DNA from: Candidatus Latescibacterota bacterium
Lineage (GTDB): Bacteria > Latescibacterota > UBA2968 > GCA-2709665
Length of the DNA: 64,000 nucleotides
Direction of reading: 5' to 3'
Assembly (NCBI GenBank): GCA_963667175.2
Contig: CAXXXF010000006.1
Location: forward strand, 657,851 to 721,850
The notes under the pieces are model-generated. The model made no database searches. It saw only the letters and a program-made list of their open reading frames with translations, and was not told the origin of the DNA. The position numbers and the translations under genes are program-made. The first letter of the stretch is position 1. Each line of letters opens with the position of its first letter. This document shows positions 37 through 5,565 of this stretch, one piece after another.

Positions 37-1746
37 CTAAGGCGGCTTCGCTTTGCTCAGCCGCAACCAAAAAGGTGGTAGTCAAGAGCAGTTTGTTTTG
101 TGGTATGAAAAACGGCGTTCGTCCTTTATGATGGTGGTCCCAACCGCCATCAACCCAAGGAGGAACGCCGTGAACGACTTCGTGGACCAATATAATGAAA
201 AAATCAGTGGCGTGGTATCGTGTTTTGATCGGGTTTTGTTCAAGGGGTACCTGCCGCTGGGATTTGGCAATGCGATGGAGCGTTTCATGGGTAATCAGGG
301 TTTTTTGTTGAAGGACTTCAAGCGTTTTGTGACGTCGCATTCCAAAACGATCAAAGCCCACGCGGAGGCGGTGGCGAGCAGGCACAAGCGCCCGTTCCTC
401 TATCTCGACCGCAACACCGTCAGGAAAGAGGAGGAAGCGCGACGCATCGCCCAACGAGATGGGATCACCCGCGGCCTGGTCTGTGTGTTCCGCGCCGTGG
501 AAGGCTGTCAGAGTTTCAAGCTGGTTCCAGGGGAAGGAAGGCCTCGCCTGCTCAACGCCCGGCGGAAGTGCCTGTGCTACTACTTCTACTATATCGACCG
601 TGAGTTCGGGTTGCTGCATATCCGCATCCAGTCCTGGTTCCCCCTGGTGGTGCAGGTCTGTCTCAATGGCCACGAATACCTGGCGCGCAAGCTCGATAAA
701 AACGGCATTGCCTATGAAAAAGCAGACAACGCGTTTCTATGGATCGACGACGTGGCCCGGGCGCAACGCTTTGCCGATCGTTTTGTCGAGAAGAATTGGC
801 CGCGCATTCTCTCCGGGCTTGCCCGCAGGGTCAACCCCCTGCTCAAAGACCTGCTTTCGGGAATGGACTATTACTGGGTCGTTGACCAGGCTGAGTTCGC
901 CACCGACGTGATGTTCACAAGCCCCCACGCCCTGAAGGTGCTGTATGAAAATCTGCTCAGACATACGGTGCTGTGCTTCTCCCCCCAGGACATCCTGACC
1001 TTCCTGGGACGCAAACTCCACGGCAACTTTCAGGGCGAAGTCCTCACGGACTTCAAAAACAAACGCCAACCCGGCGCACGGGTCAAACACCGGATGTGTG
1101 AGAACTGGATAAAAATGTACGACAAACACGGGCGCGTACTACGCATAGAGACAGTGATCAACCATCCAAGGCAGTTCAAGGTCCGCCGCTGGGGCATACG
1201 CCAAGGACAACGCGTGATGGGCTGGTATCCCATGGCCAAAGGCGTGGCCAACCTCTACCGCTATCGGGAAATCTCATTGAAGGCCAACCAACACTACCTT
1301 CATGCGCTGGCAGCAGCACCAGACACCGCGAAGAGCCGTCACAGCCTCACCACACTTGCCCGACCACGCAGGCACAGGGGGCGTACCTATCGGGGCTTCA
1401 ATCCCGCCGACACCCGCGACCTCGACCTCTTCACCGCCGTCCTGAAAGGCGAACACGCCCTGATGGGCTTCCGCAATCGGGACATCCGAAAACACCTCTT
1501 CAAACAACCCAGAACCCTCGACCAGCGCCGACGGCAGGCCAACGCCGTCAGCCGACTTCTCAAACGCCTACACGTCCGAGGCCTGATCGCCAAAATCCCA
1601 CGGTCCAGAAGATGGCGCGTCACACAGGCCGGACACGTCACACTCGCGACTTCACTGACACTATACCACAAGCACACAAACCCTATCCAAGCAGCATGAA
1701 CAAACTTCTACGCATCTTGCGTTGAAGTCTTACTGTAAGACTCTAA
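37..1746 (+). mobile_element. Putative TIR-less insertion element with hairpin ends
   Basis: Single large ORF. Left hairpin GCGGCT..AGCCGC (42-64). Right hairpins at 1705-1727 and AGTCTTAC-T-GTAAGACT (1726-1742). CTAA at 37-40 and 1743-1746. No terminal inverted repeats seen. Confidence 0.55.
170..1699 (+). CDS. Unclassified putative transposase with probable C-terminal winged-helix domain
   Basis: GTG start after AGGAGG RBS. Motifs SCFDRVLFKGYL, QAEFATDVMF and IKMYDK..LRIET. Basic wHTH-like tail VSRLLKRLHVRGLIAKIPRSRRWRVT. No DDE or HUH motif recognised. Confidence 0.6.
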   Translation: MNDFVDQYNEKISGVVSCFDRVLFKGYLPLGFGNAMERFMGNQGFLLKDFKRFVTSHSKTIKAHAEAVASRHKRPFLYLDRNTVRKEEEARRIAQRDGITRGLVCVFRAVEGCQSFKLVPGEGRPRLLNARRKCLCYYFYYIDREFGLLHIRIQSWFPLVVQVCLNGHEYLARKLDKNGIAYEKADNAFLWIDDVARAQRFADRFVEKNWPRILSGLARRVNPLLKDLLSGMDYYWVVDQAEFATDVMFTSPHALKVLYENLLRHTVLCFSPQDILTFLGRKLHGNFQGEVLTDFKNKRQPGARVKHRMCENWIKMYDKHGRVLRIETVINHPRQFKVRRWGIRQGQRVMGWYPMAKGVANLYRYREISLKANQHYLHALAAAPDTAKSRHSLTTLARPRRHRGRTYRGFNPADTRDLDLFTAVLKGEHALMGFRNRDIRKHLFKQPRTLDQRRRQANAVSRLLKRLHVRGLIAKIPRSRRWRVTQAGHVTLATSLTLYHKHTNPIQAA

Positions 1747-4048: not shown

Positions 4049-4522
4049 ATGCGGTCAAGAACCGATGTTGGAGACAACGGCAGCAGCAGCAAGGGGTCTC
4101 TGGTTGTGGAGGTCCCGCGCGGGACCTCCACAACCACGAAGCCGGATCCGGAAGTGCCGGCGCGTGCGCAGCGTCGCCGTTTCACGGCAAAGTACAAGCT
4201 TCGCATCCTGGAAGCGGCGGATGCTTGTCGCGCTCCTGGTGAAGTCGGCGCGCTGCTGCGCCGCGAGGGACTGTATTCCTCGCAGTTGACGCAGTGGCGT
4301 CGTGCGCGTCGCGAGGGGTCGCTCAAGGCGCTGTCGAAGCTGCGGGGACCGAAAGGGCGTCGCCGCGACGAGGTGGCCGTCGAGAACGAGCAACTGCGCA
4401 AGGAGATCGCCCGTTTGCGACGACGATTGGAACAGGCGAACACGATCCTCGAGATCCAAAAAAAAGCCTCCGAGATCCTGGGCATCCCCCTGAACCCGCC
4501 AGCAGGCGACGACGACGTATGA
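4049..4522 (+). CDS. IS3 transposase OrfA (HTH)
   Basis: RRRFTAKYKLRIL..GALLRREGLYSSQLTQWRR followed by a coiled coil. Confidence 0.9.
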   Translation: MRSRTDVGDNGSSSKGSLVVEVPRGTSTTTKPDPEVPARAQRRRFTAKYKLRILEAADACRAPGEVGALLRREGLYSSQLTQWRRARREGSLKALSKLRGPKGRRRDEVAVENEQLRKEIARLRRRLEQANTILEIQKKASEILGIPLNPPAGDDDV

Positions 4523-5565
4523 TCCGTGCCTGCCTGCGCCGAGCCCCGCGCGGCAGGCAGGCGGCAGAACAACTGGCCCCGAAGGTCGGGTTGGCTTCCG
4601 CGTGCCGGGCGCTGGGTGTGGCGCGGGCATCGGTCTACCGTGCGCGTCAGCCAGCCCAACGCGGGCCTCGTGGCGCCCGGTCCTCGTCGCCACGTGCGCT
4701 TTCCCAAAACGAGCGCGCTACCGTGCTGGACATCCTGCACGAGGACCGCTTCGTAGACCAGGCGCCACCGGCAGTCTACGCCGCGTTGCTCGAGGAAGGG
4801 CGGTATGTCTGCTCGATCCGGACCATGTACCGTCTGCTGCACGATGCAGGAGAGGTGCCCCAGCGGCGACACCAGCGGCGTCATCCACGTCTGGAACCGC
4901 CCCGCTTGATGGCGGATGCGCCCAACCAGGTCTGGACATGGGATATCACGCGGCTGCCAGGAACCCGCAAGTGGGAAACCTATCCCCTCTACGTCGTACT
5001 GGATCTGTTCTCACGCTATGTCGTGGCCTGGATGGTCGCCACAAGGGAGAGCGCCACATACGCCAAGCGCCTGATCACCAACGCCTGCACCAAGCAGGGC
5101 ATTCAACCCCGACAACTGACGCTGCACCAGGACCGCGGCGCACCCATGACGGCCAAGACCTTTTCGCAGTTGCTGATGGACCTCGACATCCTGGCCAGCT
5201 ACTCTCGACCCCGTGTGTCCGATGACAACCCGTATTCCGAAAGCCAATTCAAGACGCTCAAATACGCGCCTTCATACCCCGGGCGCTTCACCAACCCGCA
5301 AGAAGCACGCACCTATTTACAGGCCTTCTTTCCCTGGTACAACACACAACACCGGCACAGCGGACTGGGCTTACTCACGCCCGACACCGTCCACCATGGG
5401 CTGACACAGCAGTTTCAAGCCGCCAGACAATCGGTGCTGGACCAGGCCTATCACAACCACCCTGAACGATTTGTTAAGGGGCATCCTCGTCCACCACGCG
5501 TTCCAGACCAAGTCTGGATTAACCAACCACAGAACACCATCGAATGCCATCAGTTGCTTCACTAA
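4519..5565 (+). CDS. IS3 transposase OrfB (rve DDE integrase core)
   Basis: WTWDITRL, LHQDRG and NPYSESQFKTLK form the DDE triad. Confidence 0.92.
   Translation: MIRACLRRAPRGRQAAEQLAPKVGLASACRALGVARASVYRARQPAQRGPRGARSSSPRALSQNERATVLDILHEDRFVDQAPPAVYAALLEEGRYVCSIRTMYRLLHDAGEVPQRRHQRRHPRLEPPRLMADAPNQVWTWDITRLPGTRKWETYPLYVVLDLFSRYVVAWMVATRESATYAKRLITNACTKQGIQPRQLTLHQDRGAPMTAKTFSQLLMDLDILASYSRPRVSDDNPYSESQFKTLKYAPSYPGRFTNPQEARTYLQAFFPWYNTQHRHSGLGLLTPDTVHHGLTQQFQAARQSVLDQAYHNHPERFVKGHPRPPRVPDQVWINQPQNTIECHQLLH
4528..4562. repeat. GCCTGCCTGC mini-palindrome, copy 2 (in-frame within IS3 OrfB)
   Basis: GCCTGCCTGC-GCCGAGCCCCGCGCG-GCAGGCAGGC, 35 bp. Confidence 0.85.

Follow-up and report, generated by a model that had tools for sequence, protein, structure and literature searches.

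The window analysed here is a stretch of 64,000 nucleotides (nt) from the genome of a Candidatus Latescibacterota bacterium (contig CAXXXF010000006.1, positions 657,851 to 721,850). Near its left edge, at positions 37-1746, lies one intact copy of a repeated element of 1.7 kb, which we regard as an autonomous insertion sequence (IS) of an unclassified family. The element carries a single gene on the forward strand (170-1699) that starts with a GTG codon 6 nt past an AGGAGG motif (158-163) and encodes a putative transposase of 509 amino acids (P0001). According to an AlphaFold model and structure searches, residues 1-385 (170-1324) form a two-lobed domain resembling TBP and the Rep_trans enzymes, while weak profile matches and structure searches assign residues 386-509 (1325-1696) to a MarR-like winged helix-turn-helix (wHTH). 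Comparison of junctions across copies and lineages defined the two ends, which are read on the same strand. The left end begins with the junction pentamer C/CTAA (36-40; a slash marks a cut here and below), followed by a hairpin in which GCGGCT (42-47) pairs with AGCCGC (59-64) and by a conserved AACCAA (65-70). The right end holds a conserved subterminal hairpin, ACTTC-T-ACGCA paired with TGCGT-T-GAAGT (1704-1728), and the conserved terminus AAGACT plus CTAA (1737-1746).

Between the left end and the gene, RNA folding predicts a structured 5' leader (112-171, forward strand), a long hairpin that pairs both the AGGAGG ribosome-binding site and the GTG start. The fold of positions 37-175 has an energy of -58.1 kcal/mol (z = -5.5) that was matched by none of 200 shuffles, and Rfam gave no match in positions 1-2400 of the window. 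Insertion sequences elsewhere use similar leaders, in which the ribosome-binding site is buried, against read-through expression. Searches of the 509-residue open reading frame (ORF) in Pfam, NCBIfam, PHROGs and PDB sequences returned nothing beyond a weak C-terminal wHTH, and the IS-family hidden Markov models (HMMs) of NCBIfam gave no match. These results bear out the first-pass annotation, a model's reading of the bare sequence, which had described one ORF devoid of recombinase or transposase signatures and could not assign the element to any of the standard IS families.

A mobile element with conserved ends

The same genome (G000) holds 12 copies or fragments of the element at 91-100% identity, all of which begin at query position 35-37 and finish at 1746. 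These shared boundaries are above chance, and the frame of 508 or 509 amino acids is intact in eight of the copies. Matches occur in 7 of 40 other genomes of the order, and among genus relatives one carries 11 copies (83-85% protein identity) and another a single copy (90%). An empty orthologous site was found for the copy at C15:294800, where genome G009 is uninterrupted and reads ...CACAGCA CCTAA GAGTCC... with a single CCTAA. With the element in place the sequence is ...CACAGCA CCTAA [element] ...GACTCTAA GAGTCC..., and three genomes more distant than G009 have CCGAA at this position. Multiple copies, conserved ends and an empty site were what the first-pass annotation had proposed to look for, and all three are present.

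Gene-less derivatives, termed miniature inverted-repeat transposable elements (MITEs) below, retain about 43 bp of the left end and about 67 bp of the right end, set 210-300 bp apart. Derivatives with both element ends are scattered through all 15 genus genomes searched. In G000 they lie at C3:428466-428699, C4:141733-142021, C4:389560-389767, C5:14009-14240 and C5:16481-16714, and those of genus relatives make up loci L053-L066. The majority carry CCTAG at the left end and TCTAA at the right one, and decay is frequent among them. Having no gene, they depend on a transposase supplied in trans. At C15:527095-530190 two truncated copies stand head to tail, with element positions 36-1446 joined directly to about 72-1748; this pair may have arisen by deletion within a tandem dimer or by read-through. 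Logan contigs of four sequencing runs showed no joints, a result that is uninformative on circle junctions or excision either way.

The family is large and almost entirely unnamed. An exhaustive search recovered 7377 representatives at 50% identity with E<=1e-3, 3490 with E<=1e-10 and 783 with E<=1e-30, and of 8000 proteins scored in a word-indexed search, 3591 passed E<=1e-3. The 120 relatives listed are all without a Pfam domain and, where named, are nearly all 'hypothetical protein'. Many of them sit on contigs of 1.7-2.1 kb, which we read as a repeat breaking assemblies. A scan of one genome per species with an 11-sequence alignment confirmed at least 520 stretches, with hosts labelled as Latescibacterota (the genus of the window), Planctomycetota, Acidobacteriota, Verrucomicrobiota/Lentisphaeria, Desulfobacterales, Gemmatimonadota, Gammaproteobacteria, Mycobacterium and others. 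Burkholderia, Rhodococcus and Mycobacterium plasmids, 14 in all, also encode relatives at 24-36% identity, which bear the annotation hypothetical or 'ArsR family', and the ESM Atlas returned unnamed clusters only. That a new and widespread IS family exists is near certain.

A second, distant subfamily is present in the same genome (31% identity, about 534 amino acids), with copies at C2:20616-21797 and C4:390071-391249. Its motifs (IDR..., YFY, QAEFA, K-x-x-x-Y-x-K and LRTETTIN) follow the pattern of the main element. The two copies have a common right end, ...GGCTAGAG, and the C2 copy is disrupted near the N-terminus.

CTAA stands at both ends of the window copy (37-40 and 1743-1746) and, in the same genome, adjoins all ten distinct left ends and all eleven right ends. 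The preceding base on the left is C in nine of those ten and T in the other; over all copies, C precedes the left tetramer in 47 of 48. This tetramer is constant within a lineage and varies between lineages (CTAA, CTAG, CCAA, TTAA). In an Isosphaeraceae set, two of whose copies belong to one segmental duplication, the left end reads CCCAA in nine of the ten copies shown and CCAA in L134, and the right end reads TCTAA in nine and TCTAT in one. Another multi-copy set has CTTAA on the left and TCTAA on the right in six of six copies. The set of genome G007 has CCTAG in five copies and CCTAA in five, sorting by sub-lineage, with TCTAA at eight of eight complete right ends, and a guide search along its 1.7 kb found no other position that covaries with this difference. 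The last tetramer is CTAA in 46 of 49 readable right ends (38 from other sets and 11 from the window's genome), and the three exceptions (L142, L109 and L110), near-identical to their siblings, deviate in the last base only.

Terminal inverted repeats (TIRs) were not detected. When the first 60 nt were compared with the reverse complement of the last 60, the best local score was 8, equalled by 114 of 500 shuffles, and 11 of 30 terminal bases are identical in register between the ends. Thus the copies in the window's genome and the shuffle test both uphold the earlier description of CTAA on either side without TIRs. The junction sequences indicate that CTAA is a shared nick and target tetramer and that no target duplication is made, because the left tetramer differs from the right one in some sets. 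The empty site in G009 retains the C on the left and not the T on the right, which puts the exchange point to the right of that base. Assuming an equal target preference across lineages, only a cut at Y/CTAA at both junctions fits. It is thus plausible that the nick falls at Y/CTAA, that the element spans its own heritable tetramer up to ...AAGACT, and that the CTAA on the right belongs to the target. Under this assignment C36 would probably derive from the target, CTAA at 37-40 would probably be the element's own first four bases, and the final CTAA (1743-1746) would probably be the target's tetramer.

Other empty sites were sought at copies with a non-CTAA left tetramer. For L071, G000 was too diverged for comparison; for L070, no orthologue of the left flank was found. 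L073 lies in a family of tandem paralogous genes, the other members of which have CCCAC at that position, and the only matches of the Isosphaeraceae region in 20 relatives were to other repeats. At a MITE site compared between G006 and G000, the empty genome reads CTAT, which decides nothing on the target tetramer.

The first-pass annotation had also described different hairpins at the two ends. This stands for the left hairpin and for that at 1704-1728, which are conserved. A second right-side hairpin, the terminal one at 1726-1742 that the annotation probably had in view, also folds but is unconserved in the other multi-copy sets. The folding energy of the hairpins alone lies within chance (z = -0.67 left and -2.4 right), and we take the left and the 1704-1728 hairpins as real because comparison with relatives supports them. 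The left hairpin is present in 30 of 44 loci examined; 12 have no candidate (in some the upstream sequence is missing) and two matches look spurious. Its stem occurs as GCGGC, GCGGCC, GCGGGC and a compensatory GTGGCC/GGCCAC. At the right hairpin, an alignment of 26 sequences anchored at their termini has 65% of cells paired versus 32-46% with the partners slid by 1-3 columns, and the pairing, double changes and covariation score were reached by none of 500 shuffles; the structure tested is the window's own fold, which biases the count somewhat in its favour. RNAalifold predicted no consensus structure on the right-end alignment. Compensatory changes were found in both hairpins. Overall, eight independent multi-copy sets from other phyla, at 45-85% protein identity to the window's element, keep the same architecture. 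In all eight the left end consists of C, a tetramer, one base, a GC-rich hairpin (GCGGC..GCCGC with extensions) and AACCAA, and the right end consists of a hairpin 25-30 nt from the terminus followed by AAGA-N-T-CTAA.

Fold and conserved residues of the encoded protein

AlphaFold2, run on an 88-sequence alignment, modelled the protein with a predicted local distance difference test (pLDDT) score of 92.1; residues 1-385 alone reached a pLDDT of 95.5 and a predicted template-modelling score (pTM) of 0.92. In the model these residues form two beta-sheet lobes with helices. When they were compared with 48,161 PDB representatives, the best six matches were four TBP-containing entries (Z 8.7, 8.5, 8.5 and 7.7, with 174-180 of about 180-219 residues aligned) and two Rep_trans proteins, RepDE 4cwc_A (Z 7.1, 180 aligned) and RepSTK1 4cij_A (Z 7.0, 192 of 267 aligned). 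Below these, matches mostly covered about half of the domain, except TBP-containing 6cnb_R (Z 6.9, rank 8). Foldseek against the PDB returned, at a probability of at least 0.7, solely 4cij (0.80-0.89), 4cwe/4cwc (0.75-0.85) and TBPs, with weak E-values of 0.003-0.05. Against the viral models of BFVD it gave nine matches at E<=1e-3, to viral TBP-like proteins and to Inoviridae or unnamed proteins of about 300 amino acids (probability 0.95-0.99), including Inoviridae A0A345MNV4 (probability 0.95). The latter is a PF02486 protein according to PMC13107129, and Carr et al. (PMC4797284) give the TBP sheet as the sole structural neighbour of Rep_trans.

The argument from fold depends on which families match across the whole domain and not on how high Z is. 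In the fold searches only TBP and Rep_trans match the full domain, with middling Z, and in this sense the Rep_trans relation suggested in the first-pass annotation has found support. So has its placement of a wHTH after the motifs, where modelled residues 386-509 match HxlR, MarR and Rio2 winged helices at Z 8-9. Findings that the annotation had named as contrary to its reading did not appear: the element is not single-copy, no IS-family HMM matched its protein, and no RNase H or DDE fold stood among the top 50 structural matches, although absence from such a list is weak evidence.

In the 88-sequence alignment 13 residues are invariant (D20, R21, G26, G102, E111, Y138, Y140, G147, P158, N166, N187, R325 and E327), and the near-invariant residues include K86, R152, W156, E242, D246, K315, Y317 (codon 1118-1120) and K319; D20 is also invariant in 94 sequences. 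The Rep_trans motifs, as set out in the review PMC5714925, are N' (Asp), I (RxD), II (T/SxY/ExG), III (YxKxxE) and IV (W/LxRxE). Carr et al. (PMC4797284) give D46, D142 and E214 as metal ligands and Y191, on a strand, as the nucleophile. The order of F19-D20, Q240-x-E242-x-A244-x-D246, K315-x-Y317-x-K319 and L324-R325-x-E327 in the element protein is the order of these motifs. The residues are spaced at i/i+2 on predicted strands, K315-M-Y317-D-K319 being placed on strand 312-319 of the model, and V-L324-R325-I-E327, the counterpart of motif IV, is near-invariant. The structural alignments (VIA) start with model residue 13 at RepDE 39 and model residue 12 at RepSTK1 1. Consequently, D20 falls on the metal ligand D46 of RepDE and D9 of RepSTK1 if the first strand is ungapped.

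Local alignments in hhalign, which are insignificant, pair F19-D20 with RepC F45-D46, D246 with D142, QAEFATDV with RLDLAFD, IKMYDK with IRIYNK and LRIET with WRVEI. The first-pass annotation had put forward QAEFATDVMF and IKMYDK..LRIET as Rep_trans motifs; the segments do pair as it proposed, in an alignment that does not reach significance.

A further likeness lies in the DNA. The ICRII origin hairpin of plasmid pT181 reads AACCGGCTA-CTCTAA-TAGCCGGTT, and its loop contains ACTCTAA, the terminal seven bases of the family. By count this is insignificant (2 matches in the pT181 plasmid versus 0.9 expected), and it is the location that is the point.

A proposed transposition mechanism and its rivals

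We consider it reasonably probable that the transposase of this new IS family is a tyrosine nickase of the Rep_trans fold that acts at Y/CTAA, with a catalysis that we infer. Its winged helix and saddle would bind the GC-rich left hairpin and the subterminal right hairpin on the ORF-bearing strand. A metal site (D20, E242/D246 and E327) together with the strand tyrosine Y317 of K-x-Y-x-K would nick that strand at Y/CTAA at both junctions, leaving the enzyme linked through a 5'-phosphotyrosyl bond. The element strand (CTAA...AAGACT) would then be released or displaced, by peel-out or by a rolling-circle copy-out primed from the 3'-OH of the flank, closed into a circle, and re-inserted directly 5' of CTAA in a (C)CTAA target. 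No duplication would be made, and the flanking tetramers would be the element's own on the left and the target's on the right. Mobility, boundaries, the empty site, the conservation of the ends and the fold class are established by the comparisons above. A Rep_trans-like tyrosine-nickase chemistry is on balance the likelier one, and the single-stranded circle, the copy-out and the position of the nick are plausible. Lobe 1 is pseudo-symmetric (Y138/Y140, E111 and R152) and may, speculatively, hold a second catalytic centre or nucleophile, analogous to that of Y2 rolling-circle enzymes.

Several observations weigh against this proposal. The Z scores of 7-9 lie in a range that the tool rates as 'middling', and the non-enzymatic TBP scores equal to or above Rep_trans in the structure search. 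PF02486 gave no match at E<=1 for P0001, at E<=0.01 for 88 family members, or in the whole genome. With hhalign, P was 0.13-0.6 for RepC-like templates (RepC alone, then 116 RepC-like proteins) and 0.046-0.09 for a template of 14 sequences that included six diverse plasmid Reps, all templates being of low diversity (effective number of sequences, Neff, 1.0-3.0). On the strand Q240-A-E242-F-A244-T-D246 the acids are conserved and the Arg of the RxD motif is absent. Motif II has no clear counterpart; an E-G-x-R-x-K-H consensus upstream of the Tyr differs in spacing, and the Glu of motif III is absent downstream of K315-M-Y317-D-K319. The Rep_trans template does not account for the conserved set of lobe 1 (E111, Y138, Y140, R152, W156, N166 and N187). 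The putative active site is placed from the order of residues and the predicted strands, and the nick position comes entirely from the comparison of junctions. RepC nicks the pT181 hairpin at what we take to be TCT/AA, two bases to the right of the favoured cut, and Y/CTAA is therefore a candidate for the exact nick position. A cut at TCT/AA fits the adduct of about 11 nt reported by Carr et al. (PMC4797284).

The same enzyme class could instead work by an IS608-like 'peel and paste', with cuts 3' of the pentamer at both ends, so that the left pentamer is a target read by a guide borne on the element and the right TCTAA is the element's last five bases. The anatomy does agree with that of IS200/IS605, with neither TIRs nor duplication, with subterminal hairpins on a single strand and with a fixed short word abutting the left end, and left pentamers that are lineage-specific yet constant are expected of a guide-programmed target. 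However, no candidate guide was found, the CCTAG and CCTAA copies of the G007 set having no other covarying position in 1.7 kb. The variable last base at the right end of the near-identical L142, L109 and L110 is easier to understand if the tetramer derives from the target, and a single base separates the left pentamer from the foot of the hairpin. We judge this version unlikely. Exchange by double-strand site-specific recombination, in which a circular double-stranded form recombines at a CTAA core of the target as in IS110 or IS607, would make the TBP-like protein a new recombinase. It would account for the short identical core at both junctions, which is found once in the empty site, and for the absence of TIRs. 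Stable differences between left and right cores in several lineages would nevertheless be poorly tolerated by a staggered-cut exchange, Pfam and NCBIfam revealed no DEDD, serine or tyrosine-recombinase domain, and the fold matches a family of single-strand nickases; we rate this recombination as quite improbable.

Less probable again is that the protein is a DNA-binding factor only, a TBP-like saddle with a wHTH, with cleavage being hydrolytic or performed by an enzyme of the host or of another element and the motifs being coincidental. Such a role would suit the first rank of TBP among the structural matches, the insignificant sequence homology to Rep_trans, and the names ArsR-type or 'predicted transcriptional regulator' that relatives bear in some databases. 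Yet the element has no other conserved gene and is multi-copy in unrelated phyla, its gene-less short derivatives depend on the protein in trans, and the invariant acidic, Tyr, Lys and Arg residues are predicted to lie on the concave face of the sheet in Rep_trans order. A divergent IS5-type DDE element, with a 4-bp CTAA target duplication and degenerate TIRs, is scarcely credible and already contradicted. IS5-group elements do duplicate CTAA/CTAG-type tetramers; here, TIRs are absent, left and right tetramers differ in relatives, no IS-family HMM matched, and the top 50 structural matches include no RNase H-like structure. Beyond the choice of a Rep_trans-fold nickase acting at Y/CTAA, we see about an even chance that the element founds a new mechanistic class of prokaryotic transposases, Rep_trans/TBP-fold tyrosine nickases widespread in thousands of clusters at 50% identity. 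Such a class would span Planctomycetota, Latescibacterota, Acidobacteriota, Proteobacteria and Actinomycetota, with nearly all members unnamed.

Neighbouring repeats, significance and known systems

Other repeats adjoin several copies. Directly after the IS in the window, at 1747-1930, lies a different repeat of about 185 bp with imperfect TIRs (CAGTCCGTTG... / ...CAACGGGCTG) and, among those listed, 31 matches elsewhere in the genome at 78-97% identity. By appearance it is a MITE of the TIR type with no relation to the IS. Two overlapping forward-strand ORFs of 157 and 423 amino acids at 4049-5565 resemble, in the mere look of their translations, an IS3-type orfA/orfB pair, with an integrase-core-like C-terminal part. 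In Isosphaeraceae genome G041, an IS copy (C5:2704506-2709166, loci L159 and L160) is interrupted by an insertion of 2.7 kb, on either side of which the IS coordinates overlap by 8 bp; the insertion is presumably another transposon, one that makes duplications. In the same genome a different repeat of 1765 bp, with at least five identical copies, ends about 19 bp upstream of the IS copy at L165 (C3:18000-32000), and a segmental duplicate of this region on contig C1 is without it. The G007 copy at L073 (C1:4388000-4415000) lies within a long array of paralogous gene segments, repeated in tandem in units of about 2 kb that are 70-87% identical; the array is kept across the genus (syntenic in G001, G008, G010, G012 and G013).

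To our knowledge, transposases rely on a small number of chemistries, namely those of DDE, DEDD and HUH enzymes, serine and tyrosine recombinases, Cas1 and reverse transcriptase. No transposase of Rep_trans or TBP fold was found described in the literature searched, subscription journals and ISfinder aside. If the proposal is true, a Rep_trans-fold transposase adds one class to this list, and a second family of rolling-circle nickases was also recruited for transposition, in parallel with the HUH fold that serves both Rep proteins and IS91/IS200 transposases. Furthermore, thousands of 'hypothetical proteins' that fragment metagenome assemblies into contigs of about 1.7-2 kb would acquire a name and a function open to testing. 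Annotation pipelines overlook the IS and its MITEs. A compact nickase reading hairpins and a word of 4-5 nt would also be a possible tool protein.

Members of IS200/IS605 (IS608, ISDra2) have no TIRs, make no duplication, carry differing subterminal hairpins on one strand, insert beside a fixed word of 4-5 nt and have many MITE-like derivatives; their transposase is an HUH Y1 enzyme of about 150 amino acids. The element shares with them the lack of TIRs and of duplication, the differing subterminal hairpins, the fixed short word and the many MITE-like derivatives, whereas its protein has a TBP-like fold and neither an HUH motif nor a Y1_Tnp match in Pfam or NCBIfam. IS91, ISCR and Helitron elements have asymmetric ends, a junction tetranucleotide and a Rep-like HUH Y2 tyrosine nuclease. 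The element resembles them in its asymmetric ends, its junction tetranucleotide and, under the proposed mechanism, a Rep-like tyrosine nuclease as transposase, and its head-to-tail truncated pair recalls their read-through products; unlike IS91/ISCR, its protein matches neither the IS91 models of NCBIfam nor the HUH Y2 models of Pfam. It likewise differs from IS110/IS1111, the DEDD (RuvC-like) and Transposase_20 domains not being found in Pfam or NCBIfam searches. The element therefore behaves like single-strand or rolling-circle transposons (IS200/IS605, IS91) but shows no match to the HUH enzyme that defines them.

The Rep_trans rolling-circle initiators and MOBT relaxases (PF02486: pT181 RepC, pC221 RepD and pSTK1 Rep; 4CWC, 4CWE and 4CIJ) have the two-lobed, TBP-like beta-saddle of the element protein. 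The likeness extends to an N-terminal Asp, an acidic strand, [KR]-x-Y-x-K on a strand and hydrophobic-R-x-E in the same order, to a separate C-terminal DNA-binding domain, to a hairpin-containing DNA substrate (which for the element protein we infer), and to ACTCTAA at both the pT181 nick loop and the element terminus. In contrast, sequence homology is not detectable, the element protein has 509 amino acids versus about 310, and its lobe 1 is much elaborated with invariant residues of its own. It binds DNA, by prediction, through a true wHTH, it lacks motif II and parts of motifs I and III, and the element is a chromosomal multi-copy unit of 1.7 kb and not a replicon or an integrative and conjugative element.

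A further comparison is offered by Rep-Arvir (RepSNJ2, DUF7845) of archaeal viruses and plasmids. P0001 has no match to DUF7845 in Pfam at E<=1, in a copy of Pfam whose inclusion of that model is unchecked. As described in PMC13107129, Rep-Arvir also has a TBP-like catalytic domain followed by a MarR-like wHTH, is recognizable by structure only, gives a Foldseek pattern of viral TBPs and an Inoviridae PF02486 protein, and relies on a nearby DNA hairpin. It is presented there as a replication initiator of archaeal viruses and plasmids, whereas the element described here is a two-ended transposable element of bacteria.

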